The notes: generated by a model from the sequence alone, not told the origin. A stretch of 64,000 bases of DNA from an uncultured Gammaproteobacteria bacterium (GCA_963748215.1 CAVVHS010000006.1:800001-864000), one strand, 5' to 3'; shown: positions 10,449-57,224, counted from the stretch's first letter. Numbers and translations: made by a program.

Positions 10449-11184
10449 TGACCGTACCCCCGTAATCCGAGCCATGCGGGTCGAGGGAACTGGTGACGGC
10501 CGCGCAACGGCTACGGGCCATGGATCACCTCAAGAACCGCGGTGTCAGCGAACGCCGGGGCTGCCGGCTGACGGGCTTCAGCCGATCGGCCGCCTGGTAC
10601 CCGGTGAAGGGACGCGATGTTGCCGATCCCAGGGCGCGCCACAAGGCGCTGGCAGAGTGTTATCCCCACTACGGCTATCCGACGCTGCACGACATGCTTC
10701 GGCGTGAGTGTCTGGTGCAGATCCCCAAATGCACCAACCGGATCTACCGGGAGGAATGGCTGCAGGTAGTCGACTTCTCGATCTCCGGTCAGCGCCTGGC
10801 GCGTGAGCTGGACCGGCTGGTCTAGCGTCGACCGTTACCCAAGGCCATCGTCTGCGACAACGGGCCGGAACTGACCAGCAAGGCGATGTTCTTCCGGTCG
10901 GGCAAGTCCGGCGTGAAGCTGTATTTCATTCAGCCGGGCAAGCCGACCCAGAACGCCTTTGTCGAGAGCTTCAATGGCAAGTTTCGGGAGTACTGCCTGG
11001 GTCTGCACTGGTTTGCCAGCCTGGAAGTTGCCCGGTCAACGAGCGAGGACTGGCGTGACCACAACAACCACGTCAGGCCGCACCGGGCACTGGGCAGGAA
11101 ACCGCCTGCGGTGTTCGCCAAAGAGGCTGCCTGATACGATCAGTCTCCCACATACCACCATGCTCGCATTCAGGGGTGCGGTCA
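10449..11184 (+). mobile_element. Internally deleted IS3-family element with both terminal IRs
   Basis: TGACCGTACCCC...GGGGTGCGGTCA IRs; broken orfB with CDNGPEL and PGKPTQNAFVESFNG. Confidence 0.85.
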
Positions 11185-11351
11185 CACCACCGCCAGATCA
11201 GGCCGAACGCAGCCCGCGATGCTTTTAGCCGATCTCCTCCAGGTTTGGAAATCACCGAAAAGGTGGGTTATCTACCCTGTACGCCACTTCTACCAAGTAA
11301 GCCGAGGCACACGCAAACCACGAGTTAGCCGGTTTCGTTTTGCACGCTACT

Positions 11352-12176
11352 TTATCTAAGCCACTGCCACAGCCGATTGAATCGATTGACCATCTTCTCA
11401 ACGGTACCCGCCTGAGGAATGTCAAACAACGGCCGGGATAACTCACCGACGAGATTCAAAAACAGCCTGGGATGGGGTGTTACCGAGCGAGCCGTGACTC
11501 CATGCAACGAGTGGATCGAGTTGATCAGGAACACGGCCACGTTTCTTTCATACTCGACCGTGCTGACCACTTCCAGATTCTGGCGGCCAGTAAACTGGTG
11601 TTCAAACTTCATTGGTTGGCCGTCGCGCGATGCATACAACTCGAGCGCGCCGCCGGACGAATCATCTTGATCACTGCGCAAGTAGAAGAGACCAGCAAAC
11701 AACTTGTTGGGCAAATCAACATGCGGTCCGCGCACGGTGCTTGTGCGACGCCTGATAGGCGTGTTAACGCAGATTTGCGCATCGAGCAAGATGTCTGCAT
11801 CCGAGAAGGTGTCAACATTGCGCACACCGGCAGCAAGTTGGTCCAGTTGACCATAGCAGTCTTCCAGCCAGGGATACAGCGAGCGGATATTGCCGCCAAA
11901 GACACGCATCACATCGCCGAGGAATCTTTGACTTACGTGTTCTTCCACCAGATCGTGCCAACACTGGGCAATCTGCGAGTTAGCGCGCACACTGCGGCAC
12001 GAATAGCTAAACCGCCAGTTGTTACCGTAGTTTCGACCCTGGGTAATCGTATCTATCGGTGGGAATTGTTGGATCAACTGCTGGCAAAGTTCGTCATCCA
12101 GGGCGTCCCTAATGACCAGATGCGGGAATGGGTGCTCTATAACCTGCTGATCGGAGATGTTTGATAAGAGCGTCAT
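11352..12176 (-). CDS. 2OG-Fe(II) oxygenase superfamily protein
   Basis: HPFPHLVI, PHVD (HxD), GGALELY and SLHGVT..R motifs. Likely start at ATG 12176; the longer ORF runs through IS91 sequence. Confidence 0.8.
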   Translation of the reverse strand: MTLLSNISDQQVIEHPFPHLVIRDALDDELCQQLIQQFPPIDTITQGRNYGNNWRFSYSCRSVRANSQIAQCWHDLVEEHVSQRFLGDVMRVFGGNIRSLYPWLEDCYGQLDQLAAGVRNVDTFSDADILLDAQICVNTPIRRRTSTVRGPHVDLPNKLFAGLFYLRSDQDDSSGGALELYASRDGQPMKFEHQFTGRQNLEVVSTVEYERNVAVFLINSIHSLHGVTARSVTPHPRLFLNLVGELSRPLFDIPQAGTVEKMVNRFNRLWQWLR

Positions 12177-12192
12177 TAGCTGTACCAGAAGA

Positions 12193-12375
12193 GGGTAGAA
12201 AGTATAAACCACGCATTTTGAAGGAATCCACACCGGAGCAGAGCACCACCACAGATAATATGCCAGGTTTTCCAGATGATCACCGGGTGTTCGATACTGG
12301 CGTTCACCTTGACCGTACCTCCGCAGGTCTGGCAGGTCTCGATGTCGATCCAGAACGCGCTTGAGGCGCTGTCCG
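12193..12375 (-). mobile_element. IS91/ISCR remnant A (transposase C-terminus plus oriIS-like end)
   Basis: IDIETCQTCGGTVKVNASIE; degenerate copy of the terminal block shared by all five remnants. Confidence 0.75.
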
Positions 12376-12444
12376 CTGTACGGCCAAGTCGATACACCCG
12401 GTGCTTGCCACCGACCTAACCCATCTCGCGCAGATCCCGGCACA

Positions 12445-12925
12445 CCGTGTGATTACCGTATGCTCCACCACTCTCCAACCAGAACTGCTTGATTAAACCA
12501 GCAGCTGCTAGAGAGCGGGCCTGTTCGGCTTCGGTTACCGTAACCGTGCGTAATAGCCGTTTGGGTGCACCTCAAGCAGGCGACATGAGCGTCGCACAGG
12601 CCGTGCAGCGCTGAATACCTTGAAGAAGTGTTCTCCACTTGGATTGGTTGGCGAAGTACACCGCAGTTTATTTAGGATGTCGCGTCCTCTTTCGTGCGCC
12701 GCAGCTGGGCGCGGAGTCCGAGTATCTCGCTCTCGGCTTCAACCGGTTCAGCTACTTGCTGCTCTGTTTTATCAGCCTGAACCGCTTTTGACCACTCGTA
12801 TGAGCTATGACTGGACGCACTCAGGCGACCCGAGACTTCGGACACTGAGAAACCACGATCAATGACCTGACGAACGGATTCATCTTTAAATTCGGGTGAG
12901 TTACGCTGACTGCCCAGTGGAACCT
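12445..12925 (-). mobile_element. IS3-family remnant; orfA fused in frame to the upstream glycosyltransferase
   Basis: GSQRNSPEFKDESVRQVIDRGFSVSEVS is an IS3 orfA-type HTH; degraded orfB start follows. Confidence 0.65.
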
Positions 12926-13583
12926 GCATTGCTCGGTATTCTTTCCACCAGACCTCAGAAAAATCACAATCACTGTAATCATTAAAGTATGGCCCACCAA
13001 GTGTAAAGTGGATAAGTGCAGGTAATTCCTCTGGCCTGTCATATTCATCAACCAGGAAATTCCACTCCAGTGGCAATTCACCAATTAATGAAACATTTTG
13101 AAGCCATTTGAATTGATGCAAGTATAAGCCGCTCTCATTATTCACGACTTCAGGGGTCAATGCCTTACATTTCCTGTTATTGAACAGCATTACCGATGAC
13201 CAATTCTTTTTTTCATACTTGCTTTGTGTCTGATTTAGAAATTTAGTAGATGTTTTTGGGGTGTAATCGTGCTTGACAACCTGAACGGCATACTGATCGT
13301 CAAACATGTCGACCAATTCCTTGATATCACGCGTCACGATCATATCGCAGTCCATAAATAACGATACCCCCTGATAATCGGACAAATAGGGGACCAGGAA
13401 TCTAGAGTAAGAAAACTCCGTTGAAGACAATTCTCCTTTATCGCGCTGATAAACCGGCTTAAGTGTATCTCTCGCAAGCGGGGTTATCGAAACGGGCACA
13501 CTGGATCGCATCAAAATAGAATGGCAAAGTGTATGGAATGCAATAATCTCCTGGCTATCATAGCCAACAAAAATTCTTATCAT
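12672..13583 (-). CDS. GT-A (GT8-like) glycosyltransferase with IS-derived C-terminal extension
   Basis: IFVGYD, STEFSYSRFLVP, FMDCDM, KKNWSSVMLFN and IHFTLGGP motifs. Confidence 0.85.
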   Translation of the reverse strand: MIRIFVGYDSQEIIAFHTLCHSILMRSSVPVSITPLARDTLKPVYQRDKGELSSTEFSYSRFLVPYLSDYQGVSLFMDCDMIVTRDIKELVDMFDDQYAVQVVKHDYTPKTSTKFLNQTQSKYEKKNWSSVMLFNNRKCKALTPEVVNNESGLYLHQFKWLQNVSLIGELPLEWNFLVDEYDRPEELPALIHFTLGGPYFNDYSDCDFSEVWWKEYRAMQVPLGSQRNSPEFKDESVRQVIDRGFSVSEVSGRLSASSHSSYEWSKAVQADKTEQQVAEPVEAESEILGLRAQLRRTKEDATS

Positions 13584-13894
13584 TGGTATTTAGCCCCGCG
13601 ATTCGCTATAGCTTGATAATCAAGGAACGCTTGCGCTGCATATTCATGTTGTGAAACTGTAATAAGTAATTTAGCGGAACAGAACCATATGGTGAACAAA
13701 CGATAATATTTAACAGTTACACCAGAAACAGATGAAATGGCTGAGTGAGATCGCAAGCAAAGTGCAACAAACCGTTCCAGATTCAATTTTTTGACCCTCG
13801 GTAACCAAAAGTTAAAAAATATGAATGAAAATATTCCACGCGTAGTTGTTATGCGCCAATTGATTGGCAAACATATCCATGTCGTTGAATGAGA

Positions 13895-14632
13895 ATTGGA
13901 AGGATAACCCACGTAGTTCAAAAGAATCCACCCCGGAGCAGAGCACCGCACCGGTATCCTGGCCGCTGAATCTTTGTGATCCGGGCACCAACAGGCAGAT
14001 TGCGCCCGCCTGCCATCCGCTTTTACCGGCCATTTGCTCACACCACGGTGGGGGACCGGCCAACCGGCCGCGGCCACCCCTGCCCGCCCATCTGTCGGGC
14101 TGGCATCCTTGCCGGTTAATGTGAATTCACAGATTCCCGTATGCCAGACGTCAACTCCAACCGCTGGACGGCACACGCAGCTCCGGTAGCCGCAATACTT
14201 ATCTGCCCGGGTCCGTTTCCCCCGGATGTGCCAGAATTTTGCTGATCTCACCAGGTCTTGGATACTGGTAACCATCTTGAGCGCGCCGCCGCAGGCCTGG
14301 CAGGTCTCGATGTCGATGCGGAACACGCGCTTGCGGTGCCGTGCCCAGCTCATCGCTACCCTTGCACTGGACTCTTCGTAGCTGCCTGTGCAGGTTAGGG
14401 TCTGCAGGCTGCAGGCCTTACGGCCTTGATGTGGGCCTACCACAATGCGGTAGGTGATGGAACTTCCCAGCACCCTCGCCAGGCCGGTCTCATCCGCCGG
14501 CTCAAGGGCCAGGCAGCTGTTCTCCAGATCGCGCAGCAGCAACACCTGACGCTCCAGGTATCACCCCGTCCACTCGCAGACGGTATAGAAGAGGTGCTCC
14601 AGTTCTGCACGGTCGGGCCCCTTTACCCGCTG
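13895..14632 (-). mobile_element. IS91/ISCR remnant B
   Basis: SITYRIVVGPHQGRKACSLQTL and RVFRIDIETCQACGGA, internally deleted; oriIS-like end near 13895. Confidence 0.8.
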
Positions 14633-44436: not shown

Positions 44437-45236
44437 GGGTATAGGAAGCATAACCCACGTATCTCGCGAGAATCCACCCGGGAACCGGCCGTCTCACCGG
44501 CATCCCTGCCCCTGAATCCCCGCACCCCGGCCGCCTGCAGGCCGCTCCCGGCCCTCTGCCACCGGCTTCCGCTGGCCTCTTCCTTTTTGTAACAGCCATG
44601 GCCCGGCCCACCGGCCGCAGCCCACCTTGCCCGCCTCCCTCCCGGGCCGGCAGCCTGGCCATGTGAATCCATGAATACCTGCTTGCGCCTCGTCACACCC
44701 ATCCGTCCGGCAGCGCACGCGGTGCCGGTAGCCGCAAACCCTCACGGACCGGCGCCGCTTGCTCCAGATGCGCCAGAATCTTGCCGATCACCGCCGGGTC
44801 CTCGATGCTGGCGATGATCTTCACCGCACCGCCGCAGGCCTGACAGGTCTCAACATCGACAAGGTGAATGATGCGCAGCATCAAGAGAGGGTGCCCTGGG
44901 GCATCCGGAATACGCGCTTGAAGCCCTGTGCCCAGGTCATCGCAGACCGGCGGGCCGCCGGCGTGTCCTCCTCTACCTCATCCGATGCCTTGCGGTTGGC
45001 ACCCCGGCCCCGACCCGCCTTCGTGACCCAGGCCCGGTGTGGACTGTTCGGTGCGAACACCCCGTGGTAGCGGGTCAGATTCACCCGTGGCCGCGGCACC
45101 AGCGCCGCCAGGCGGGCCATGAAATCCAGCGGTTCGAAAATGACGTGCGTGGTGCCGTCCCGGTAAGGCGTCTTGAGCTGGTAGCGCACAGTTCCCGAAG
45201 GCGTCAGCGACAGGCGCGGTTCGGCAATCGCCGGGC
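44437..45236 (-). mobile_element. IS91/ISCR remnant E, near-identical to D
   Basis: Same transposase C-terminus and oriIS-like end; lacks the 71-bp insert found in D. Confidence 0.9.
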
Positions 45237-45511
45237 CGCCGGGGTTCATTGAAAGGTAAAACACCGAAATTGTTTCTGGAACAACGTTACCAGCATGCGA
45301 TTGGTGAGCTGGATGAATCGAGGAAATATCAGCGCCAGTTTGAAGCCTATTACCATCGCAAGTGAAAAAAGGAACCCGGATGGTGGCAACAGAATAATTC
45401 AGCCAAGCCAGGCCTACAGTGTTGGCTTGTGGAGTAAGATATATCCGTCAGATAACTAATGCGTGTTTTATAAAGCAAGTTGAGGCAACAATCCTGCATT
45501 CCGCACGTTCT

Positions 45512-46456
45512 TTATACGGCGCTGTTAGCAGGCAATATTACTTGCTTGACCCTGTTTCTCAACTTCTTAAAATAACCTTCCTGATATAATATGCACTCGG
45601 GATAATAACCATACCCTTGGATTCTCCGCTCATCATTTGGATAAAGGCCTGGCCGTCCAATAAGCACAACAGGTAATTTAGGATTGAAAAGCTTACTCCA
45701 GGCTGACAATAAAGATGGCGTTTTTATAAGTAAGTCACACTTTGACAGCAATATGCTATCAACCAATGCGTTTAGTCCTTTTTGATAATTATTCGAATTA
45801 TCTTCAAAATGAACTTTTCCACTCGGACTGCTGTAGATAAATATCTTTTTACCTGAAATATTTTGTGATATATATTTTATAAATTCTGGCTCATCACTTG
45901 CTATGAATATTGAGTCGAACCTACTTTTATATTTCTCTATTATTGATAACACAAAAGAATTCTCAAATATATACGCTTCTCTATGTTTATCCAAACCGCG
46001 ATAGTGAATGCCTAAGACTTTTTTATTTAAAAATGTTTTTAAATAAAAATCTTCTGCAGCTTTCAGAACATAATCCTGAATCTTAATATAGTGATTAAAA
46101 AGTAATTTACCTGCACGTAATGTTGTAAACTCATTTTGTATTTCATTGTCTTTATTACCACGCGTTAATTCATTAATGGAATACCGATTATGAATCTCAC
46201 AATAATCCCCATTCGCATATTTTTTTAATGCCTGCCTGCGGCCTTCTTGTGATAATTGCTTATGCGTAAAATAATAATCAAACCAATTTTCACCATGACG
46301 GTGATCAATATTCCCCTTTCCGGCAAGAACGAAATATGGAATTAGATTATTTTCTGCGCAATATTTTGATAAAAATAAACAATAATTTAATTGTGCAAAT
46401 GTACCAATATTATGTTGAGATAATTTAAAAATCACTATAGCTTCAGAAAGCTTCAT
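45512..46456 (-). CDS. NodZ/FUT-like fucosyltransferase-fold glycosyltransferase (very AT-rich)
   Basis: LGIHYRGLDK, IFIASD and ALVDSILLSKCD..IKT.S.LS motifs; ATG 2 bp from the IS3 end. Confidence 0.75.
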   Translation of the reverse strand: MKLSEAIVIFKLSQHNIGTFAQLNYCLFLSKYCAENNLIPYFVLAGKGNIDHRHGENWFDYYFTHKQLSQEGRRQALKKYANGDYCEIHNRYSINELTRGNKDNEIQNEFTTLRAGKLLFNHYIKIQDYVLKAAEDFYLKTFLNKKVLGIHYRGLDKHREAYIFENSFVLSIIEKYKSRFDSIFIASDEPEFIKYISQNISGKKIFIYSSPSGKVHFEDNSNNYQKGLNALVDSILLSKCDLLIKTPSLLSAWSKLFNPKLPVVLIGRPGLYPNDERRIQGYGYYPECILYQEGYFKKLRNRVKQVILPANSAV

Positions 46457-46505
46457 AAAGAAGTGGACCCCGAAAATTGGACAGCCCGATAAGTGCTGCC
46501 TCGGG

Positions 46506-47330
46506 TCATGCTGCCATCCTGGCGGCGTCTTGGTAATACACACTGTCCGGCGTCTGCCTGTCAAGCGACTGATGCCGACGTTTGGCATTGTAGAACGCAA
46601 AATACCTGCCTAACGAAGCACGGGCGTCGCCAATGCTGTCGTAGGCCCTGAGGTAGACCTCCTCGTACTTCACACTGCGCCACAGGCGCTCGACGAAGAC
46701 GTTATCGACCCAACGGCCCTTGCCGTCCATGCTGATGCGAATGTCCTGTTGCTTGAGCACACCGGTAAAATCTTCGCTCGTGAACTGGCTGCCCTGGTCA
46801 GTGTTGAAGATCGCCGGTGCGCCGTAGGTCTCGATCGCTTCGTTCAGCGCCTCGATACAAAAACTCGTGTCCAGCGTGTTGGACACCCGCCAGGCAAGCA
46901 CCCGTCGCGAATACCAGTCCATGATGGCGACCAGATACACAAAACCCCTGGCCATCGGGATATACGTCACGTCGGTCGCCCATACCTGATTCGGGCGATC
47001 GATCACAAGATTCCTCAGCAGGTACGGATACACCCTGTGCGCCTGGTTGGCCAGGCTCAAGTTGCGCTTCGGATACAGCGCCGCCAGACCCATGGTGCGC
47101 ATCAGGCGCTGTACCCGCTTACGGTTGACCCAACGACCCTCATCCTCAAGCCAGTCCCGGATGCGCCGGCTGCCGTAGTAGGGATGCTCCAGATGGCAGC
47201 GGTCGATCAGCGCCATCAGTTCAAGCTCCTCCTCGGTGACCGGCTGGGGCACGTGATAAAACGTCGAGCGTGGCAGATCCAGAAGCGCGCATTGGCGGCT
47301 CACTGGCAACGGGTCCATCCGATCTACCAT
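46506..47330 (-). CDS. IS3 transposase OrfB (DDE)
   Basis: [15 protein letters not shown] and [15 protein letters not shown] motifs. Confidence 0.93.
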
Positions 47331-47632
47331 TTCTTTCCTCTGGGCCCGTGAATCCGTTCGAGCCCGCGTTCTAAAAAATCGTTCTCCATCGTCAGCTGAC
47401 CGATCTTCGCGTGCAAGGCCTGGACGCTTTCTTCGGTATCCTCGGCTTTCCTGGCACCTTTACCAAACACGTCCGGTGCACCGCTGAGTAGCTGTTTCTT
47501 CCACTCAGTGATCTGGTTGGCATGCACATCAAACTTCTTGACCAGCTCCGCCATCGTCAGATCCCCCTTGATCGCTGCCAGGGCTACCTTGGACTTGAAC
47601 TCAGGTGAATGGGTACGTCTCTTTCGTTTCAT
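47324..47632 (-). CDS. IS3 transposase OrfA
   Basis: MKRKRRTHSPEFKSKVAL HTH; LHAKIGQLTMENDFL. Confidence 0.9.
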   Translation of the reverse strand: MKRKRRTHSPEFKSKVALAAIKGDLTMAELVKKFDVHANQITEWKKQLLSGAPDVFGKGARKAEDTEESVQALHAKIGQLTMENDFLERGLERIHGPRGKKW

Positions 47633-47733
47633 TGCTTCTCTCCAGAGCTTGTTGCTCATGATGGAGGAAAGCACTTATCATCGTCCAGTCACTGTCCAAC
47701 CGGTGGGGTCCACTTCTCTCTGATGTACCGATA

Positions 47734-47767
47734 AACCAAAAGACCCGCGCAAGGCGGGTCTTTTGGT
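47734..47767. terminator. Bidirectional-type terminator hairpin
   Basis: ACCAAAAGACCCGC-GCAAG-GCGGGTCTTTTGGT. Confidence 0.75.
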
Positions 47768-47772
47768 AAGGT

Positions 47773-47968
47773 AGCCAGCGACTACGATCGTCTGATTGAG
47801 GCCTCGGAACGTCCTGGACATGCCGACACTGCCATCACCCAGCGTGTCTTTCGACTGAAGCCCGTACGGATTCAGCCCTTAAAAAAGGCAGGGGAACCTG
47901 ATTCTACTGGACAATCGTGTATCTATTGGACAATCACTCATTCAAGGCAGCAGTAAGTCCTTGAAAAA
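47773..47968 (+). pseudogene. Second integrase C-terminal remnant plus arm region (direct repeat of ~6893-7086)
   Basis: ASDYDRLIEASERPGHADTAITQRVFRLKPVRIQPLK; TGGACA repeats. Confidence 0.6.
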
Positions 47969-48213
47969 TGGCGCGCCCGAAGAGATTACTCGGCCAAATT
48001 CTACTCGGGGCATTACTGACCCTCGCGCCCTGCGGGCCGCCGCCGCTGCGCGGCGACGTTCTCGGCACTTGCTCCCTGCATTACTCTCGGCTCTGGCATC
48101 CTGCTTCGCTCTACCGAGTCCATCCATGGACTCGTACCTCCTGAATGGCCCAGGCCAGCTGCTCGACCCGGACTATGCCCGTAATATGGCTAACCTTTCC
48201 CTGCAGTCGTGCA
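47969..48213 (-). other. att-like site: tRNA-Arg 3' end plus truncated T-loop insert
   Basis: TGGCGCGCCCGAAGAGATT-ACTC...; insert is homologous to the 58852 copy, then runs into a MITE fragment. Confidence 0.75.
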
Positions 48214-48346
48214 CCGGCGGGACAGCGACCCATTTTCCGGATCCTCCCCGTCAAATAGCTACGGCTACTCTCCTTGAATTATACAAAAAATGACCTCACT
48301 CTCCCACCCGGCTCGCTACGATCGCCCAGATCCGACAGACTCCTGG
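48214..48346. mobile_element. Partial MITE (right part of the 54543-54703 element)
   Basis: Aligns with 54574-54707, including the right TIR. Confidence 0.75.
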
Positions 48347-48373
48347 ATTCGATTATTCCTGAATTTATAGCTA

Positions 48374-48416
48374 TGTACGTTATCGTACAGACTGCGTTTT
48401 CTCATACGACTACTGT
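48374..48416 (+). promoter_or_regulatory. Putative Crp-family site with class II promoter
   Basis: TGTACG-TTAT-CGTACA; -10 TACTGT at 48411. Confidence 0.7.
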
Positions 48417-48596
48417 TTCACCAGCATCCGGACTGCCCGTGTAATTTGTCCTGACTATGTCACCTTTTCCTTTCCGCAGGCTGTTGCTGCGCAAGACGCG
48501 AGAGTAACGGAGTAGAGGGATGCGGCATGGATGCTCGATCTACTGTCCCGCCAGTCGGGACCCGAACAACACCTCTACGCTGGAAGGAGTATCAAG

Positions 48597-49158
48597 ATGT
48601 ACAACATACGCAATCATCCCCTCACACTCATGTTCGCGGCGGCAGCCATCGTCTCGATGAGCGTGATGAATCTGGCAAGTGCCGCAACCGCTGAGGATCT
48701 GGACAAGGATTCCCGACAGGCCTTGCAGACACTTTATAAAGCCGAACCTGTTGCCAAGACCCTTTCGCACACCGCCAAGGCTATCCTCGTTTTTCCGAAT
48801 ATCGTAAAGGCTGGCCTGGTATTCGGCGGCAGCTATGGCGAAGGTGAGCTGATCAAGGGCTCGAAGAGTGGTCGATTATTACAACTCCGTAACCGGATCC
48901 TGGGGTCTGCAAATCGGCGCCCAGTCCTACGGATATGCCGTGTTTCTGATGACAGACAAGGCCGTCAAGTACATCGAAGAGACGAAGGGCTGGGAAATTG
49001 GCGTGGGTCCGACCGTCGTGGTGGTTGACGAAGGGGTCGCGAAGAATCTTTCGACATCCACGCTAAAGGATGATGCCTATGCGTTTATCTTCAGTCAGCA
49101 GGGATTGATGGCTGGAGTCAGCATCGAGGGTACGAAAATTTCCCGAATCGAACGGTAA
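48597..49158 (+). pseudogene. SYLF/Ysc84 lipid-binding protein, frameshifted near 48865
   Basis: AKAILVFPNIVKAG..FGGSYGEG / GSWGLQIGAQ...GLMAGVSIEGTKI split between two frames. Confidence 0.8.
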
Positions 49159-49316
49159 ACCGGCACGGGGCGGACGCGATTTGCGTCCGTCCCGACTTGT
49201 CTGTCTCCCTCAAATACAGAGGGCGAAATTACAGCAGCGGTGATGAAGCATCAGGCCGCACCGAAACGATTCAGTCGCTGCCTCTGGAACACATATGAAC
49301 TCACAGGAGAATATCC

Positions 49317-49508
49317 GTGCCTTTGATTAACCTGGTCATCATCTTGCTCGTGGTTGGCGTACTGCTCTGGGTCGTCAATACCTACATACCCATGGACCGC
49401 AAGATCAGAAACATCCTGAACATAGTCGTGGTCATTGTGGTCGTGATATGGTTACTGCAGGTGTTCGGCGTGATGGGATCGCTGGATAGCATACGTATCG
49501 GCCGATGA
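49317..49508 (+). CDS. Small two-TM membrane protein (Thivi_2564-like)
   Basis: VGVLLWVVNTYIPMD..I..ILN.VVVI; AGGAG RBS. Confidence 0.8.
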   Translation: MPLINLVIILLVVGVLLWVVNTYIPMDRKIRNILNIVVVIVVVIWLLQVFGVMGSLDSIRIGR

Positions 49509-49684
49509 TGGCCTGAAAGGGTCATGAGACACAGTCAGTCTCCAATAAAAGTAGATCGATAGTGCGTTGGAAGTGGAGCCTGACACCTCGCATTCGCGAA
49601 GACTATTCCGATCCCCGTAACATCCATTACAATACCCGAAGCTGAAATAACCCGATTCGATGTGCGAATCGGGTTCTCATATGA

Positions 49685-50326
49685 GTGTTTGATCAGGACC
49701 TATCCGTCATGATCAAGAGTGAACGCTTCAACAGCATTTCACATCTGGTCGGTGCTGTGCTGGCGCTGGCAGGTGCCGTGGTGCTGGTTGTGGTGGCGTC
49801 GCGGGGTGACGATACACGCCGCATCGTGTCGTTCAGCATTTATGGCGCGACGCTGTTTCTGCTTTACCTCATTTCCACACTTTATCACGGCCTGCCGACG
49901 GGCCGTGCGAAGCACGTGTTCCGCGTTCTCGATCATCAGGCGATATATCTGCTGATAGCCGGAAGCTACACGCCGTTCACGCTGGTCGTGCTCGACGGTA
50001 TTGTGGGTTGGTGGCTGTTCGGTGCGATCTGGGGCATGGCGGTGCTGGGTCTGGTGCTCGATGCGCTGCCCCGGCGCGGCGCGCGGGTGCTGCCGTTTAT
50101 TATTTACTTCGTAATGGGCTGGTTGATAGTGCTGGCCATTGATCCACTGCTCGCGGCGCTGCCTCGCACGGGCTTCATCTGGCTGTTGACCGGCGGCATA
50201 CTCTATTCCTCCGGTATCGTGTTTTTTGCCCTCGATCGCCGTTACCCGTGGATGCACGGGGTATGGCATCTGTTCGTACTGGCCGGCAGCATCAGCCACT
50301 ATGTGGCGATTCTGGTCTATGTGTGA
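49685..50326 (+). CDS. Hemolysin III / PAQR family membrane protein
   Basis: E.FNSISH, STLYH, DH.AIYLLIAGSYTP and HGVWHLFV motifs. Confidence 0.92.
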   Translation: MFDQDLSVMIKSERFNSISHLVGAVLALAGAVVLVVVASRGDDTRRIVSFSIYGATLFLLYLISTLYHGLPTGRAKHVFRVLDHQAIYLLIAGSYTPFTLVVLDGIVGWWLFGAIWGMAVLGLVLDALPRRGARVLPFIIYFVMGWLIVLAIDPLLAALPRTGFIWLLTGGILYSSGIVFFALDRRYPWMHGVWHLFVLAGSISHYVAILVYV

Positions 50327-50475
50327 TAGCCAATAACGGTTCCGTAAGCAGTCGTATCGCAGGTGTCCTGAATGGCGATGGGCAAACTCCACGCACCTCG
50401 AGTCCGTAACCCGCTCGTTTGGATGGTGCAGCACCAGATCCTGTGGCCGAGTACCAGGGCATGGCAGGCGTGTTA

Positions 50476-50518
50476 TGTACGCTACCGTCCAGACAACCGC
50501 CAGGTCTCATTCCATACT
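50476..50518 (+). promoter_or_regulatory. Putative Crp-family site with class II promoter
   Basis: TGTACG-CTAC-CGTCCA; -10 CATACT at 50513. Confidence 0.65.
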
Positions 50519-50595
50519 AGTATTATTCATCTTCGTGAAAAACACTTACCCTTGGATGCGTATTCGACACAGGGATTGCACAGCCAGCTCTCAAT

Positions 50596-51378
50596 GTGCC
50601 GTTTCCCGGGTTTTCCGACACCAGGAGAGATCATTTGCCGCTCACCAGACCTGCCCCGGTTGCCAATCGTCTGCTTGGTGCCCTGCCGCGCAAGGACCGT
50701 CAGCGATTTCTGGCAGGCTGCGAGCCGGTCGAACTGGCATTTGCCGATGTCCTGACCGAACCTGGCGAGCGCATTCGCCACGTTTACTTCCCCACGGAAA
50801 GCTTCATTTCGCTGGTAACGCCGATCGATAGCCGCGCTCGCCTGGAGGTGGGACTGGTCGGTGACGAAGGCATGCTCGGAATCTCCCTCATACTCGGAGT
50901 GGATGTAGCGCCGCTGCACGCCGTGGTACAGGGAAAAGGTACGACGCTGCGCATGAACGTCGCGCCGTTTCGCCGCGAACTCGCACTGAGCCCCGCACTG
51001 CAACGGGGACTGAAGCGTTACCTCTATGTAATGATGGGTCAAATCGCGCAAACAGCCGCCTGTACCCGCTTTCATGTGGTGGAGGCGCGTCTTGCCCGCT
51101 GGCTACTGATGACACAGGACCGGGCGCACTCAAACGCGTTCCATGTCACGCATGAATTTCTCGCTTACATGCTGGGCGTGCGTCGTGTCGGTGTCACCAG
51201 GGCCGCCACTGCGCTGCAAAATCGCAAACTGATCCGCTATAGCCGCGGGAATATCACGATTCTTGACCGCGGCGGCCTGGAGGCCGCTTCCTGCGTGTGT
51301 TACGCGGCCGATAAGGCAATCTACGCCAGGATATTGGGCCAGAACGCCTGTCGGACTCAGGAAATCGTAGCGCGCTGA
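50596..51378 (+). CDS. Crp/Fnr family regulator
   Basis: [29 protein letters not shown]; [19 protein letters not shown]. Confidence 0.9.
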
Positions 51379-51434
51379 ATACGCCTGTCAGGCAACAATA
51401 TGAGGATCAGTGCGACAACACGCGGCCAACCGGA

Positions 51435-52154
51435 TTAATGAACGTTGATCACCGGGAGCAGGCGATCGAACTCCTTCTTGACCACCTGGTAGCATTCGCA
51501 GACGCGTGCCTCCAGGCCGGGCCGGTCCAGCACGGTGATCTTGCCGCGGCTGTAGTGAATCAACCCGGCGCGCTGCAGTTTCCCGGCCGCCTCGGTGACG
51601 CCTTCGCGGCGCACGCCGAGCATGTTGGCGATCAGCTCCTGCGTCATGATCAACTCGTTCGAGGGCAGGCGGTCCAGGCTCAGCAGCAGCCAGCGGCACA
51701 GTTGCTGGTCCACCGAATGATGCCGGTTGCACACCGCCGTCTGCGCCATCTGGGTCAGCAGCGCCTGGGTGTAGCGCAGCAACAGACGCTGCATCGGCCC
51801 GGCGCGAAAGAACGCGTCCTTCAGCAGCTGCCCCTTCAGCCGGTAGGCGTGACCGGCGCTTTGCACCACGGCCCGGCTGGTCGTGGTTTCGCCGCCCATG
51901 AACAGGGAGACGCCGACGATGCCCTCGTTGCCGACCACGGCGATTTCGGCCGATGCGCCATCCTCCATGACGTAGAGCAGGGACACGATGGAGGTGGTGG
52001 GGAAATAGACGTGGCGCATCGTCATGCCGGGCTCGTAAACCGCATCGCCGAGCGGCATCGGGACCAGTTCCAGATGGGGAAAGAGGCGCGCGCGTTCCTC
52101 CGCCGGCAGGGCGGCGAGCAGGTGGTTCTGACGGGGGTCATGAGGGACGGGCAT
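51435..52154 (-). CDS. Crp/Fnr family regulator (convergent paralog)
   Basis: NHLLAALP, EIAVVGNEG, QQLCRWLL; HTH QELIANMLGVRREGVTEAA. Confidence 0.93.
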   Translation of the reverse strand: MPVPHDPRQNHLLAALPAEERARLFPHLELVPMPLGDAVYEPGMTMRHVYFPTTSIVSLLYVMEDGASAEIAVVGNEGIVGVSLFMGGETTTSRAVVQSAGHAYRLKGQLLKDAFFRAGPMQRLLLRYTQALLTQMAQTAVCNRHHSVDQQLCRWLLLSLDRLPSNELIMTQELIANMLGVRREGVTEAAGKLQRAGLIHYSRGKITVLDRPGLEARVCECYQVVKKEFDRLLPVINVH

Positions 52155-52252
52155 GTGCCGCCGCCCAAGTATCTGTCAAAACTGTAATAATCATCGATGT
52201 GGCTGTATCTGCTGCTGGAAACGCCGGTTAATTATCTCCCCTCCCCCGCCAA

Positions 52253-52344
52253 TGTACAACAGCGTACAGACGGAGCACGGGTACCCTTCGATTGCCGGCT
52301 ATGTACGCCAGCAGACAGACGGCGAATGAGGTCCTCCGTAAGCT
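52253..52344 (+). promoter_or_regulatory. Two Crp-family sites 49 bp apart plus -10 element
   Basis: TGTACA-ACAG-CGTACA (52253) and TGTACG-CCAG-CAGACA (52302); TAAGCT at 52339. Confidence 0.65.
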
Positions 52345-52467
52345 CGAATCATCGGAACCAGCATAAAAACCTGCAATGTCTGCAGCGCTATCCTGGCGAA
52401 GAGCAGTGTATGCCCGGCATGACTTGCCGATGCATCACTCCCGGACTCACCACATTAAGGAACGTTA

Positions 52468-52707
52468 ATGACCAACTTCAACACCATTGATACCATGCAG
52501 AAATACGCACTCATTGCAGTTGCCGCAGCCTTGCTGCTCGGCCTGAGTGGTTGTTCCGGGATGTCGACGCAGGACAAAAACACCGCTATCGGCGCGGGTG
52601 TCGGTGCCGTCGGCGGCGCAGTTCTTACCGGCGGCAGCACGATCGGAACCGTCGGCGGTGCAGCCGTTGGCGGCATCATCGGCCACGAGATCGACCCGGA
52701 CAATTGA
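52468..52707 (+). CDS. Glycine-zipper 2TM lipoprotein (OsmB-like)
   Basis: Lipobox LSGC; TAIGAGVGAVGGA...GGIIGHE. Confidence 0.88.
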   Translation: MTNFNTIDTMQKYALIAVAAALLLGLSGCSGMSTQDKNTAIGAGVGAVGGAVLTGGSTIGTVGGAAVGGIIGHEIDPDN

Positions 52708-52840
52708 TGATCGGTCCGCGACGTGCCTGGCCCACCCGGCCGGTGCGTCGCGGACTCTGATAACCCTGGATACCGGCAATCGGTGTGACCCACACGGTGA
52801 CTCCCCCTACCAGACACAACATCATCAGGAGATATACATC

Positions 52841-53035
52841 ATGAAATCAGTCAAGATCCTCAGCACAGCCTTGCTTACAAGTGCGTTGCTTATTGCACTA
52901 ACCGGCTGCGAGAAACAGGAAGGCCCGATGGAGAAAGCCGGCAAGAGTGTCGACAACGCGACCGAGTCACTTGGAGAACATATGGAAGATGCCGGTGAAG
53001 CCATCCAGGACGCGGCAAAGGACGCCAAGAAGTAG
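52841..53035 (+). CDS. Small lipoprotein
   Basis: AGGAG RBS; lipobox LTGC; EGPMEKAGKSVD. Confidence 0.8.
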   Translation: MKSVKILSTALLTSALLIALTGCEKQEGPMEKAGKSVDNATESLGEHMEDAGEAIQDAAKDAKK

Positions 53036-53260
53036 AGAGCGCTGTATATGGGCAACAACCAGAGTTAATCGTGTGTCGTTCTGCACTATCAAGGGCCCTG
53101 CCGACCGCTTGTGGGGCGCGCAGTCACAGCGCAAGTTCCTCACGCAGATGGGGCTCGACCAATGGACGCAGTCCGGGGAGCTGGTTCGCCCGGAAGTGAA
53201 GCGATTCACTCCGGATTAAGTGGCTCCGCGACAGGACATGACAGATCAGGAGTAACATCC

Positions 53261-53407
53261 ATGCTTGAAACTATTGCGATTATCTTGCTCATCCTATGGG
53301 TGCTTGGCCTGGTTTCATCGTACACTATGGGTGGGTTGATCCATCTTTTCCTGGTCATCGCGCTCGTTGTGATCGTGATACGCGTCATTCAAGGTCGACG
53401 CGTGTAA
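53261..53407 (+). CDS. lmo0937-like small membrane protein
   Basis: MLETIAIILLILWVLGLVSSYTMGGLIHL; AGGAG RBS. Confidence 0.85.
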   Translation: MLETIAIILLILWVLGLVSSYTMGGLIHLFLVIALVVIVIRVIQGRRV

Positions 53408-53514
53408 CGGCCCGGGAAGTGCTCTCTGTCGCAGGGGGGCTAGGTGAATCGATCCGGTGATTTCCGGTTTACCGGGCGCCTGCCTGTAACGAAAGCATCA
53501 GAGAGGACGTGATC

Positions 53515-53829
53515 ATGCTGGTAACCTTTTCCTGCCCGGCCTATGCGAGCATAACGATGTTCGGCGCGGATGCAGTCCGACTGCTCAAACTGATGGGGCA
53601 CAGCGGTACGGTGCCCGGCGCTCTGCTGGCAGTAGATGTCCAGGCGGCGCTGGAACACCTGGAAGCTGCGGTCGAGGCAGACCAGCAGTCGCCGGAACCG
53701 GAAGTGCCTGCGGAAGGAGAGGACGGCGAACCTGCCGTCAGTCTCACGCACCGCGCCTTGCCGGTAATCGAATTACTCAAGGCGGCGGCAAAGGCAAAAT
53801 GCGACGTGATGTGGGACAAGAGCAACTAA
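53515..53829 (+). CDS. DUF1840-like protein
   Basis: MLVTF...ITMFG..A..LLKLMGHSGTVPGAL...RALP.IELLKAA...VMW. Confidence 0.85.
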   Translation: MLVTFSCPAYASITMFGADAVRLLKLMGHSGTVPGALLAVDVQAALEHLEAAVEADQQSPEPEVPAEGEDGEPAVSLTHRALPVIELLKAAAKAKCDVMWDKSN

Positions 53830-53883
53830 TCCAGCAGTCGTATGTGACAGTTATTCCAATACCAGGCCGCCAACTATAGTCAG

Positions 53884-53980
53884 GTGGTTGTGCCGGAATG
53901 TCGGCACAAGACAGAAGTTTCACTATCGACGCTGGAGTCGGGTCCGTAGACGGTACAGTCGTCGGCGGCAGCATCGATAG
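53884..53980 (+). pseudogene. Degenerate second copy of the OsmB-like gene
   Basis: GGCAGMSAQDRSFTIDAGVGSVDG aligns with SGCSGMSTQDKNTAIGAGVGAVGG. Confidence 0.55.
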
Positions 53981-54156
53981 TCGATCAATCCGGCGTCTGT
54001 ACTTACCGCATACCGACCCCGGTTTCTGCTCACCGCTGTGTAGGTGCACTCCCCCGCCCCGCTCCTCCAGGCACTGCAATGGTGCTGCGAACTCCCTGAT
54101 AGCCCCGCCCGGGGATGTACACACCATGATCAGCTATGCAGGCAATTGTGACCTTA

Positions 54157-54199
54157 GGTACGCCAGCGTACCGACTGCACCTGATCCTGCGAGTAATCT
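54157..54199 (+). promoter_or_regulatory. Putative Crp-family site with class II promoter
   Basis: GGTACG-CCAG-CGTACC; -10 TAATCT at 54194. Confidence 0.65.
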
Positions 54200-54338
54200 T
54201 GTATTTGTATCCGGAGTTTCCGTGAAATGATCCCGTCTTCTACCCACGCGAAGTTACCAGGTGACGAAAGATGACTGCGACGAAGGATGCTCGATTGGCA
54301 ATACCGCCAGTCGGAACACTGACAAAAGGACTTTACAT

Positions 54339-54542
54339 ATGGACTGGAATATCGTTGAAGGCAACTGGAAGCAGTTCAAGGGCAAGGTGAAAGCACAGTG
54401 GGGCAAACTCACCGACGATCACCTCGACGTGATTGCCGGCAATCGCGATCAGCTGGCGGGCAAGATCCAGGAGACCTATGGCATTACGAAGGACGAAACC
54501 GAACAGCAAATCAAGGATTTCGAAGAGCTTGACAAGCACTAG
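54339..54542 (+). CDS. CsbD/YjbJ family stress protein
   Basis: MDWNIVEGNWKQFKGKVKAQWGKLTDD...GKIQETYG. Confidence 0.92.
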   Translation: MDWNIVEGNWKQFKGKVKAQWGKLTDDHLDVIAGNRDQLAGKIQETYGITKDETEQQIKDFEELDKH

Positions 54543-54703
54543 GAGCCTGTCGGACTTGGGACTGATCTACTGCGCCGGCGGGACAGCAGCCCATTTTTCC
54601 GATCCTCCTCGTCAAATAGCTACGGCTATTCTCCTCGAACGATCGGAAAAATGACCTCGCTCTCCCACCCGGCTCGCTACGATCGCCCAAATCCGACAGG
54701 CCC
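54543..54703. mobile_element. ~160-bp MITE with 18-bp TIRs, flanked by CTAG/CTGG
   Basis: GAGCCTGTCGGACTTGGG ... CCCAAATCCGACAGGCCC. Confidence 0.75.
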
Positions 54704-54810
54704 CTGGCAGCCGACGCATTTCTCCTGACCTGAACGACGCCGTACACGGCGATACGCCGCATGAAGCGAGGGTCGCACAGGGCAGGCACTTTACTGAAAG
54801 GATACTACTC

Positions 54811-55284
54811 ATGACAAGCTCTGAACGCTTCACTCCGCCACATGTTCCGACCGGGGGCGCCACGCATAGGGTTGAGCGCCTTCACAACACAGAACAATGG
54901 CGATGGAAGGCTCAGTCGGACGACTGGGATATTGAAGGTGGACGCGTGGCTGCAACTCACGCTGCCGAGCAAGAACCGTTCTCGATCGACACAGAAACCG
55001 TGGCGTCAATGCCGCTCCATCGTCATGAAGCAGACGAGGTCATGAACGCGCCCTCTGCAGCCGGCAGTGTTAGCCCTGACGTCCCTGGCCATTCCCCTCG
55101 CGGACGCTCATGTCCCCAATGCAATGGCCCCGTGGAACGTATACGACGCCGCATTCTCGATCGAATCGTGAGCTGGATTATGCCGGTGTACCGCTATCGC
55201 TGCCGTATGAAGGGTTGGGGTTGCGATTGGGAAGGGAATCTACGCACCAAGCGACATTCCCTGCCGATGCATGGGCTGCGGTGA
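54811..55284 (+). CDS. Hypothetical protein with C-terminal Zn-ribbon-like motif
   Basis: CPQC...YRYRC....GCDWEG; AAGGA RBS. Confidence 0.5.
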   Translation: MTSSERFTPPHVPTGGATHRVERLHNTEQWRWKAQSDDWDIEGGRVAATHAAEQEPFSIDTETVASMPLHRHEADEVMNAPSAAGSVSPDVPGHSPRGRSCPQCNGPVERIRRRILDRIVSWIMPVYRYRCRMKGWGCDWEGNLRTKRHSLPMHGLR

Positions 55285-55431
55285 GTTGTACGACGGAAGA
55301 CACGGCGCACTCGATCCATCACGACGGGGCGTCGCCTCGCCATACCGTCCAGGAACGCAGCCGATGAGCAGTCGAGTGATCGGAATCATACCGGCGATAC
55401 AGTGACGATCCACCTGCTTCGATCGAGGATA

Positions 55432-55474
55432 TGTACGACAGCGTACAGACTTGATAATGGAGTTCACGTAGTCT
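55432..55474 (+). promoter_or_regulatory. Putative Crp-family site with class II promoter
   Basis: TGTACG-ACAG-CGTACA; -10 TAGTCT at 55469. Confidence 0.7.
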
Positions 55475-55691
55475 AAACATCAGAGGTGAGATGCCGTAAT
55501 CGGGCATTCCGCCAGAATGAAGTGCGCAAGACGCATGCGGCGAAATGATGGGAAGCCTAGCTACGGGCGGGATAAGCTGGATGTGGCTTCTATCCTGGCT
55601 TGTCTCCGTACTGGACGTGGTGCATTTCACCGTCACTAGCCGACAGTAACGGACACATGAATTTATTCAGCTCAATTAAGGAAATATCACT

Positions 55692-56630
55692 ATGAAAACT
55701 TCAAAACTGGCTGCCGCGATCATCGCCAGCGCCCTGTCTGCGTCTATCGTATCAGCGCAGGAAATGACCGCGCCCGCCGGGTCGGCGAAGTGCATAGACG
55801 CGGACAAGCAACTGTCCCAGATGCAGGAGAAAATGCAAGAATTACAGCAGCAGATGGAAAAACTCCGGCAACAGTCCAGGTTGCAGGAGAACATGAACGA
55901 AATGCAGCAGCAGATGGGGAAACTCCAGGCGACGACTGACCCGAAGGAACGCCGGAAGCTGTTGCAGGAACACATGCAGACCATGCAGGCACATATGGAG
56001 ATGATGCGTAGCATGAGCGGATCCGAAGGCGGCCCGGGCATGATGGGTGGTCCGCAGCGCGGTCCCGGTAGTCCGGGCGGCATGATGCATGGGCCCCAAG
56101 GCGGTCCGGGTGGCATGATGCGTGGTCCGGGTAGTCCAGGCGGCATGATGTACGGTCCCGGTGGTCCAGGCGGCATGATGTACGGTCCCGGTGGTCCGGG
56201 CGGCATGATGTACGGTCCCGGTGGTCCGGGTGGTCCCGAAGATGGCCCAGGTGGAATGGGCGGTTACCAGGGTGGCCCCGGTAGCATGGGCGGTCCCGGT
56301 GGTCCGGGCGGCATGATGCGTGGGCCCCAAGGCGGCCCGGGTAGCATGATGGGTGGTCCGGGTGGAATGGGCGGTCCCGGTGGTCCGGGTGGCATGATGC
56401 GTGGGCCCCAAGGCGGTCCGGGTGTAATGATGCGTCGGCCTCAAAGCGGTCCGGGTAGCATGATGGGTGGTCCGGGTGGAATGGGGGGTCCGGGCGGTCC
56501 AGGCGGTATGATGTACGGTCCCGGCGGTCCGGGTGGCCCCGGTAGCATGGGCGGTCCCGATGGTCCGGACGGCATGATGTATGGTCCCGATGGTCCCGAA
56601 GGTGGTCCGAATGAACCGAGGTCTGAGTAA
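55692..56630 (+). CDS. Secreted Met/Gln-rich coiled-coil protein with long GPGGMM low-complexity tail
   Basis: AAGGA RBS; signal peptide; TTDPKERRKLLQEHMQTM; ~200 aa of G/P/M repeats. Confidence 0.8.
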   Translation: MKTSKLAAAIIASALSASIVSAQEMTAPAGSAKCIDADKQLSQMQEKMQELQQQMEKLRQQSRLQENMNEMQQQMGKLQATTDPKERRKLLQEHMQTMQAHMEMMRSMSGSEGGPGMMGGPQRGPGSPGGMMHGPQGGPGGMMRGPGSPGGMMYGPGGPGGMMYGPGGPGGMMYGPGGPGGPEDGPGGMGGYQGGPGSMGGPGGPGGMMRGPQGGPGSMMGGPGGMGGPGGPGGMMRGPQGGPGVMMRRPQSGPGSMMGGPGGMGGPGGPGGMMYGPGGPGGPGSMGGPDGPDGMMYGPDGPEGGPNEPRSE

Positions 56631-56954
56631 TCATATAACCCACCTTCCAGCGCGCCGAGAAGCTGTTCACAAACGAACAGCGTCAAGCCCCGCAGGGGCT
56701 CCCATGTCATGATGCCGCAGCAGACACGGTAACGATGGGTATTCCAGAATACTCAGGGAGTCACGTTCTGTACAACAGGCTGACTCCCTGCTTCTTTCTG
56801 ATCGCAGGACGTTCCGGGCAGGCCCGCGGTTAACCTGTGCGTAGCCAATTGTTGCTCAGACTGCTGCGTTCAACCGGTATAGCTCTCGAAAATACTGATA
56901 AGCAGCTAAAACGTGCGTGTTCAGAAATGTGAAAGAACATCAAGAGTCGGACAT

Positions 56955-57090
56955 GACCTTCATTGAGAAGCATACCAAGGCCCCGGCGCCTTACATATGG
57001 ACCAGGTCAGCAACTGATATCCTGGAGAAACTGAAACAGGAAAGAAAAACGCTCAATAAGTTACAAACTGTTTGAAGACTCACAATAGCG
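56955..57090 (+). mobile_element. IS630-family 3' remnant
   Basis: FIEKHTKAPAPYIWTRSATDILEKLKQERKTLNKLQTV* resembles an IS630 transposase C-terminus. Confidence 0.6.
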
Positions 57091-57224
57091 GATTCGGATA
57101 AACTCTATAGAGGCGAAATAAGTTTATCCAGGCCCTCTCGCGTTGCGCGATTCACGATGGGTTACGCGTGATCGTACTGATTGAGCCGGGTGTCGGAAGT
57201 GTTCCGCGAGACTGGATCAGGTCA

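Follow-up and report, generated by a model that had tools for sequence, protein, structure and literature searches.

We describe here a pair of Crp/Fnr-family regulators, Crp-1 and Crp-2, and a set of predicted operators around their genes in a 64,000-nucleotide (nt) stretch of DNA from an uncultured gammaproteobacterium (GCA_963748215.1, CAVVHS010000006.1:800001-864000), which is referred to throughout as the window. Palindromic boxes related to TGTACG-N4-CGTACA stand in front of five predicted transcription units, each followed at a fixed distance by a -10-like hexamer, and it is likely, judging from sequence, that these boxes are the operators of an uncharacterised clade of the Crp/Fnr family and that they direct class II activation of stress genes. 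The evidence, all of it computational, lies in the sites themselves and the exactness of their phasing, in the fact that they are conserved and occur together with the clade, and in the content of the genes that follow them.

Boxes, spacing and conservation

An earlier reading of the DNA, made without database searches (below, the sequence-only reading), had placed five boxes at 48374, 50476, 52302, 54157 and 55432. Scanning the window, which corresponds to C6:800001-864000 of a 9-contig, 3.52-Mb assembly, with the pattern TGTACG-N4-CGTACA and counting mismatches recovers all five at precisely these coordinates, with 0, 1, 2, 2 and 0 mismatches, respectively. There are 8 matches at up to 2 mismatches in the window, compared to 1.65 expected, a number that none of 100 shuffles reached, and 131 such matches in the whole assembly. 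Exact matches occur only twice genome-wide, both times inside the cluster, as do 3 of the 10 matches with a single mismatch, leaving 7 matches at up to 1 mismatch outside of the cluster in 3.5 Mb of genome. One good site had been overlooked by the sequence-only reading, a sixth box at 52253 (TGTACAACAGCGTACAGAC, 1 mismatch) in the space separating crp-2 from the osmB-like gene. We judge two other matches to be due to chance: that at 50915 sits inside crp-1, and that at 54731 scores less than 11 bits on the matrix introduced below and is without a -10 at +37.

Conservation of the box was assessed in 80 loci from other Beta- and Gammaproteobacteria, the best kept of the loci carrying Crp-2 orthologues (76-93% identity), which together amount to 862,579 bp. 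The hosts are Halomonas, Variovorax, Paraburkholderia, Noviherbaspirillum, Aromatoleum, Dyella, Marinobacterium, Accumulibacter, Hydrogenophilales and many metagenome-assembled genomes; the family as a whole is large, with more than 8000 database proteins scoring E≤1e-20 against Crp-2. Around the 80 orthologues the simple pattern is found 57 times with no more than 1 mismatch, versus the 7 occurrences in 3.5 Mb outside of the cluster here, an enrichment of ∼30-fold. A symmetrised 20-bp matrix built from these locus matches converged on T-M-TGTRCG-CYRG-CGYACA-K-A as the family consensus. At a threshold of 17 bits it identifies 275 sites in the 80 loci and 8 in the 3.52 Mb of the present genome, 6 of the 8 in the cluster, and at 15 bits at least one site is found in 77 of the 80 loci (median 3, maximum 11); the matrix was trained on the loci, and among the matrix results only that for the present genome is independent.

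Five of the six boxes in the cluster are predicted class II sites, all on the + strand and all followed directly by GAC: box 1 (TGTACGTTATCGTACA, 48374..48389, an exact match of 25.8 bits) at the SYLF promoter, box 2 (TGTACGCTACCGTCCA, 50476..50491, 22.7 bits) at crp-1, box 4 (TGTACGCCAGCAGACA, 52302..52317, 22.5 bits) at the osmB-like unit, box 5 (GGTACGCCAGCGTACC, 54157..54172, 21.2 bits) at csbD and box 6 (TGTACGACAGCGTACA, 55432..55447, an exact match of 26.0 bits) at the GPGGMM-repeat gene. The remaining one, box 3 (TGTACAACAGCGTACA, 52253..52268, no strand assigned, 17.0 bits), overlaps the -35 of the predicted crp-2 promoter. The consensus of the boxes in this genome is TGTACG-N4-CGTACA and all six fit GTA-N8-TAC. 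The motif is not wholly non-canonical: TGTACG does differ from the CRP site, as had been stated, but the TGT-N10-ACA frame is that of CRP and the GTA-N8-TAC geometry that of NtcA. The description of the regulon as self-contained is nearly correct, with the motif almost confined to the cluster, but not fully so because a seventh class II site is located on contig C8 (C8:73213, minus strand), where a 25-bit box has GATAAT at exactly +37. The gene after this box (C8:72575-73045, minus strand) encodes a secreted Gly-rich repeat protein of the GGPGYG type, so that the GPGGMM protein is not the only predicted target with repeats.

A (T/C)AnnnT sequence starting exactly 37 nt after the box start had been noted at each of the five promoters in the window and is present at 5/5, with TACTGT (48411..48416) after box 1, CATACT (50513..50518) after box 2, TAAGCT (52339..52344) after box 4, TAATCT (54194..54199) after box 5 and TAGTCT (55469..55474) after box 6, all on the + strand. 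The same spacing is conserved across the 80 orthologous loci. When 304 sites in these loci are read in both directions, giving 604 oriented half-sites, and TAnnnT starts are tallied at offsets 17-79, a start is found at offset 37 in 96 of the 604, compared to 19 and 10 at the neighbouring offsets 38 and 36, respectively; none of the remaining offsets has more than 8, the background being ∼3. With the -10 hexamer placed at -12 to -7 the centre of the box falls at -41.5, the class II position that the sequence-only reading had assigned to it and that the exact 37-nt spacing preserves in the 80 loci, always relative to predicted -10 hexamers.

Additional promoter features emerge from those 94 sites with TAnnnT on one side only, which could be oriented and stacked. 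The flank proximal to the hexamer is G in 84%, A in 92% and C in 60% of these sites, and the distal flank is not. These bases correspond to the GAC of a -35 hexamer, separated by a 17-nt spacer from the -10, which accounts for the trailing '(GA)' of the motif as first written. The -10 in the stacked sites tends to TAnnCT. A sigma-S signature was sought in the same sites and not found, C being at -13 in 28%, which is background level, and the hexamer not being followed by TAA. There is overlap between the box and the -35 region in every promoter. A generic sigma-70 scan detected the crp-2 promoter and none (0/5) of the class II promoters in the window; that all five are missed by a search for the sigma-70 consensus fits with promoters that are activator dependent.

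Finally, the occurrence of the site was compared with that of the clade in a survey of 201 genomes, one per family across the class and including the present one, with carriers defined as having a Crp-2 relative at E≤1e-40. By this definition 23 of the 201 are carriers. A strict composite pattern (box, KA, 19 N, TAnnnT) is matched 16 times in 10 of the genomes: 15 of these matches are in 9 of the 23 carriers and only 1 is in the 178 non-carriers, so that the motif is not equally frequent in genomes without the clade; the reversed pattern, used as a control, gives 0 matches across the 201 genomes. The lone non-carrier match (G039, flagged unpublished, ∼400 contigs) lies 472 nt from a contig end, in a genome where the best Crp-2 match has an E value of 6e-6.

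The two regulators and their own promoters

Both regulators match the HTH_Crp_2 family (PF13545), Crp-1 with 60.3 bits and Crp-2 with 58.3 bits (cut-off 27), and are 44% identical when aligned over 227 residues. The cNMP_binding family (PF00027) matches Crp-2 at 35 bits (cut-off 27.5), and Crp-1 gives no match to it at E≤0.01. The gene for Crp-1 occupies 50635..51378 on the + strand, with an uncertain start at either TTG 50635 or GTG 50596, and that for Crp-2, also a Crp/Fnr-family regulator, 51435..52154 on the - strand. A convergent pair, as they had been called, is an accurate description for the window, but elsewhere the usual arrangement is a tandem one on the same strand, in the order Crp-2, a gap of ∼230 nt with a box and Crp-1; 36 loci hold one gene of each type. 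From this comparison we read the convergent pair in the window as a rearrangement.

The recognition helices GVRREGVT and GVRRVGVT had been quoted correctly, and they are representative of two groups of proteins. Among Crp-2-type sequences the helix is RREGVTE, with the first E present in 94/95 and the second in 85/95, and among Crp-1-type sequences it is RRVGVT(K/R), with V in 36/43 and K or R in 32/43 (RRVGVTR in the Crp-1 of the window). In a quick tree a branch with a value of 100 in the Shimodaira-Hasegawa-like approximate likelihood ratio test (SH-aLRT) separates a group of 43 rows, in 41 of which the first helix position is other than Glu, and the sequences accordingly fall into separate Crp-1 and Crp-2 clades.

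Four residues, Cys142, His146, Cys219 and Cys221 in the numbering of Crp-2, flank the helix-turn-helix and are invariant in 95/95 Crp-2-type and 43/43 Crp-1-type sequences. The invariant Cys residues are not N-terminal, unlike the Cys cluster of FNR, and the helices are not of the E--SR type. In a HMMER alignment of Crp-2 with GlxR the Glu of the Gly-Glu motif of GlxR is positioned at a gap and its Arg-Thr-Ser is opposite Thr-Thr-Thr; these are residues that contact cyclic AMP (cAMP), and the usual cAMP contacts appear to be lacking in both paralogue clades. The signal is probably not cAMP and possibly acts through the invariant Cys3-His set; the PAS-GGDEF genes in the regulon (see below) give a hint of a link to cyclic di-GMP (c-di-GMP). 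The nearest solved structure, which is not a close one, is 3dv8 (E 1.5e-7), and the match is restricted to the DNA-binding domain.

The genes of the clade are themselves preceded by boxes, in ways that differ between the two types. Of 44 Crp-1-type genes, 37 have a box at 40-300 nt upstream, and in 32 of these the predicted geometry is class II, which supports the positive control of crp-1 that had been proposed. An upstream box is present for 62 of 93 Crp-2-type genes, only 13 of which are in class II geometry, and Crp-2 promoters have instead a near-consensus -10 (TATACT, TATAAT, TAGACT) at offsets 23-24 or 34. In the window the predicted -10 of crp-2 is GATAAT (52231..52236, - strand; predicted start ∼52224), with a 16-nt spacer to a -35, TGTACA, that is a half-site of box 3; the centre of this box lies at ∼-36.5 of the predicted sigma-70-like promoter, and the same layout of box and promoter is found in the closest relative, locus L029. 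Box 3 also precedes box 4 by 49 bp, which places it at ∼-90.5 relative to the osmB-like promoter, and may serve both of the divergent promoters. The mostly non-class-II location of the Crp-2 sites suggests autorepression and, taking position as the sole guide, a circuit in which crp-2 would be autorepressed and crp-1 activated.

Genes behind the boxes

The general-stress regulon that had been suggested for the window is supported by the genes that follow boxes across the 80 loci, which by their Pfam families form a general-stress and envelope set. A census covered the 213 oriented sites whose hexamer starts at offset 36-38, taking up to 2 open reading frames (ORFs) for each after the predicted transcription start. 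Removal of 48 Crp-like ORFs by their helix pattern left 318 candidates. Of these 297 were scanned with Pfam; the other 21 comprise 3 duplicates and 18 that fell outside the scan. The families recovered are BON (7), CsbD (6), DUF3309, glycine-zipper 2TM (OsmB-like) and PRC-barrel (5 each), PAS-GGDEF (4, in at least 4 loci), DUF5670, DUF883, Ysc84/SYLF, AI-2E transporter, fatty-acid desaturase and PG_binding_1 with Sel1 (3 each), PLD (2-3), DUF1328, Transgly_assoc, DUF3096, Phasin_2, OmpA, DUF4398, collagen-like repeat and GAF histidine kinase (2 each), with HlyIII, DUF1840, LemA and EncFtn-like as single cases. Escherichia coli puts this kind of gene set under the control of RpoS.

Within the window family profile searches uphold the genes as they had been called, namely SYLF, crp-1, crp-2, osmB-like, csbD and GPGGMM. 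The first of the regulon, on the + strand, encodes a lipoprotein of the SYLF/BPSL1445 family and extends over 48597..49158 (48597..49028 and 48868..49158); a frameshift near 48865-48870 divides it into two overlapping frames, reflecting either a pseudogene or an assembly error, and a strong terminator-like hairpin is located 3' of the gene at 49166-49194. Downstream of box 4 are, all on the + strand, genes for the OsmB-like glycine-zipper lipoprotein (52468..52707), a 64-residue lipoprotein (52841..53035), an lmo0937/DUF5670 membrane protein (53261..53407) and a DUF1840 protein (53515..53829). The gaps within this set of four contain no box and no listed + strand terminator-like site, and we treat the set as a putative unit. 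The csbD-family gene (PF05532, 74.3 bits) is at 54339..54542 on the + strand and the GPGGMM-repeat gene, whose secreted, Gln/Met-rich product has no family match, at 55692..56630, also on the + strand. Between them (54811-55284) lies the gene for a 157-residue protein with a C-terminal Cys4 ribbon-like motif; the gene is without a convincing box of its own, and 10 of the 80 loci contain relatives. Genes for a Thivi_2564-family membrane protein and for TrhA/HlyIII in the cluster region are not preceded by a box.

The predicted 5' leaders of the five class II units are all long (∼110-210 nt), covering 48423-48596, 50525-50634, 52351-52467, 54206-54338 and 55481-55691. Those of SYLF and csbD share the element GGATGCTCGAT-N8-CCGCCAGTCGG (48529-48558 and 54285-54314, respectively), 25-39 nt before the start codons, where 0 occurrences are expected by chance. 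The element is not present in the other three leaders of the window nor in any of the other loci covered, and could represent either an RNA element or a short reading frame upstream of the gene. A search of 47500-57200 against Rfam at E≤0.1 produced no match.

Several observations concern the surroundings of the cluster. A dispersed repeat of ∼130 nt is present in two copies, 88% identical, at 48216-48345, just 5' of box 1, and at 54577-54706, just 3' of csbD; full copies are found at four further places, on C6, C8, C7 and C5, a single partial one is also on C6, and the repeat has no match in Rfam. Directly upstream of the cluster, at 46506-47674 on the - strand, two overlapping ORFs were judged by eye to be an IS3-like transposase pair (orfA/orfB), and the G+C content falls to 45% at 45000-47000.

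Proposed mechanism, alternatives and related systems

In the mechanism that we favour, a regulator dimer would be centred 41.5 bp upstream of the predicted start at the SYLF, crp-1, osmB-like, csbD and GPGGMM promoters, with another on C8. There it would overlap a weak -35 that keeps only GAC, 17 nt from a TAnnCT -10, and would stimulate RNA polymerase by class II activation. The box at crp-2, placed over the -35 of a near-consensus sigma-70-type promoter, would most likely damp expression of crp-2 (autorepression), holding Crp-2, the highly conserved paralogue with the RE helix, at a steady level. Once active Crp-2, or else Crp-1, would turn on crp-1 and the stress genes, with crp-1 serving as an amplifier. 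What we infer in this scheme is that Crp-1 and Crp-2 bind the boxes, that the effect is activation and not repression, how the paralogues divide the work and what the signal is.

A number of points weigh against it. The -41.5 placement is derived solely from predicted -10 hexamers, and a protein centred at -41.5 would cover the -35 as well, so that repression is compatible with the sequence. Box 3, at 17 bits, is weaker than the others, and a -10 at +37 is lacking on both strands. The choice of A or G at position 4 of the half-site is no different in loci with and without a Crp-1-type gene and leads to no assignment of sites to paralogues. The densities of matrix sites are circular, having been obtained from the loci on which the matrix was trained, a circularity of which the simple-pattern counts and the composite survey are free, and the 80 loci are mutually related and do not constitute independent samples. 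In the survey 14 of the 23 carriers are without a strict composite match.

The compatibility with repression leads directly to an alternative in which the boxes are repressor operators and one or more Crp-type proteins, bound over the -35, hold the stress genes off until a signal is received. The overlap of box and -35 at every promoter would be explained in this way, as would the crp-2-type boxes, whose positions (-10 offsets of 23-24 and 34) are more typical of repression. We nevertheless consider it unlikely for the regulon as a whole. The rigid offset, with 96 occurrences at 37 compared to 19 at 38 and 10 at 36, is unexpected for steric repression and is a hallmark of protein contact with RNA polymerase, and promoters that keep only the GAC of a -35 and escape a sigma-70 scan are expected to be weak when unaided. 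It is more improbable still that some other regulator, be it canonical CRP/Vfr-like, FNR-type or an unrelated factor, binds the boxes and that the Crp neighbourhood is a coincidence. The genome does encode one class III nucleotide cyclase and, besides Crp-1 and Crp-2, two proteins of the Crp family, and the box has TGT-N10-ACA in common with the CRP site, but every box here has A where CRP needs G (TGTACG versus TGTGA), the composite pattern tracks the clade, as described above (15 matches in carriers versus 1), and the clade's own genes are preceded by sites in most loci. Of the two additional proteins one (C3:213163-213864) has a canonical CRP helix, SREMAGR, along with Gly-Glu and Arg-Ser-Ala motifs, and the other an FNR-type E--SR helix, which predicts a TTGAT-N4-ATCAA site; from their helices neither would fit a TGTACG box.

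A more serious contender, although one against which we still lean, is that only one of the paralogues binds, or that the active species is a heterodimer, in which case the statement of the sequence-only reading that both proteins drive the regulon would be wrong in detail. The two clades differ consistently at two base-contacting positions of the helix (E/E versus V/(K,R)), half-sites vary between TGTA and TGTG, and in 37 of the 80 loci there is no Crp-1-type gene within 6 kb and sites are still present, though a Crp-1 gene may sit elsewhere in those genomes. Against this, the half-sites are A in 26% and G in 54% of cases in the 41 loci with a Crp-1-type gene, very much as in the 36 loci without one (30% and 50%). 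Mixed A/G sites number 100 of 304, compared to ∼88 expected if half-sites are independent, and provide no support for a heterodimer.

Class II activation by one or both paralogues, as we favour it here, can be compared with several known systems. The resemblance to E. coli CRP includes a dimeric Crp-family helix-turn-helix protein, a 16-bp core of TGT-N10-ACA, a location at -41.5 over a poor -35 (as at class II promoters such as galP1) and, in Crp-2, an R-E pair where the recognition helix begins. The differences are that the inner half-site is (A/G)CG here and not GA(N), giving boxes of TGTACG and not TGTGA-N6-TCACA, that Crp-2 has Glu and Crp-1 Arg/Lys at the position aligned with Arg185, that an invariant Cys3-His set is present and that a separate canonical CRP is encoded elsewhere in the genome. 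NtcA, the global nitrogen regulator of cyanobacteria, recognizes GTA-N8-TAC with a -10 of TAN3T. The likeness extends to a GTA-N8-TAC box at -41.5 followed by TAnnnT and to the helix, RRVGVTR of Crp-1 being the same as TRVTVTR of NtcA at 5/7 positions, with Val in place of the Glu of CRP; the likeness of the helix holds for the Crp-1 type only, the Crp-2 type having E in 94/95. NtcA (TIGR03697) is the best named NCBIfam match, but the scores are 19.3 and 28.7 bits where the cut-off is 244.95, which amounts to resemblance and not membership. The present system differs from NtcA in its proteobacterial hosts, in a stress/envelope regulon as opposed to nitrogen assimilation, in the extra CG of each half-site and in the Cys3-His set.

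A match of Crp-2 at E 0.0034 is to PDB 2zcw ('Transcriptional regulator, FNR/CRP family'), which we take to be SdrP of Thermus thermophilus, a stationary-phase activator of the Crp family. SdrP likewise activates stress and stationary-phase genes from class II positions, apparently with no cyclic nucleotide; it is, however, only distantly related in sequence, differs in operator and phylum, and is not known to have a paralogue pair or Cys3-His set. Another CRP-family protein of Thermus, TTHB099, is reported in PMC7662524. The gene content recalls most closely the RpoS regulon of E. coli, with counterparts in OsmB, BON (OsmY), CsbD (YjbJ), DUF883 (ElaB/YqjD), DUF1328 (YtjA) and Transgly_assoc (YmgE/YeaQ), but control here would be via a predicted activator box and not the selectivity of a sigma factor, and C is not enriched at -13. 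The genome does encode a true RpoS (444.6 bits, cut-off 378.7), so the Crp pair would add a layer to sigma-factor control and not replace it. BerA (Bcam1349) of Burkholderia cenocepacia, by description a c-di-GMP-responsive activator of the CRP/FNR family in Betaproteobacteria that does not use cAMP, is of interest here in that PAS-GGDEF genes are preceded by boxes in at least 4 loci. It differs in that berA is described as RpoN-dependent (PMC5552954); passage searches of PMC5552954 and PMC3584217 gave no operator motif for BerA. The lxa motif of B. cenocepacia is TGA-N6-TCA, of the Anr/Fnr type (PMC3721108). A search of the full-text literature found no description of the clade, the box or the regulon; subscription journals and supplements may hold more. 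As far as could be found, then, the type of mechanism appears familiar, class II activation by a Crp-family dimer, and what seems not to have been described is the clade, its operator, the circuit of paired paralogues and the probable sensing of something other than a nucleotide.

The clade is also found on mobile DNA. The G+C content of the cluster, 53-62%, compares with ∼60% for the genome, and relatives of Crp-2 are present on 59 plasmid records, 4 of them conjugative. The relative on pKLC102 of Pseudomonas aeruginosa is 76.6% identical and pKLC102 also has boxes, one with TAGACT at +37; over 8109-14363 of this element boxes are near genes for a GH94 glucan-synthase-like protein and a fatty-acid desaturase and near hypothetical genes. 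A broader picture can be sketched, although only tentatively, and we would doubt that it is right in every part. The pair and its targets could constitute a mobile general-stress module that exists beside RpoS in hundreds of Beta- and Gammaproteobacteria and on plasmids and islands such as pKLC102. Crp-2 would be an autorepressed sensor, reading a metal or redox centre at the Cys3-His set of its DNA-binding domain and not a cyclic nucleotide, Crp-1 an NtcA-like amplifier switched on by Crp-2, and a single new operator, at the class II promoters of small proteins that protect the envelope, would serve them both.

Genes of the CsbD, OsmB, BON, DUF883 and DUF3309 families are usually ascribed to sigma-factor control, and here and in many Proteobacteria they are preceded by what would be the box of an unstudied pair of Crp-family activators, in a clade whose spread reaches the conjugative elements of opportunistic pathogens. 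With an operator, predicted transcription starts and, in the conserved Cys3-His set, a candidate sensor site in hand the regulator is directly testable, as the head of a stress programme that would be independent of sigma factors and would travel as a mobile cassette.

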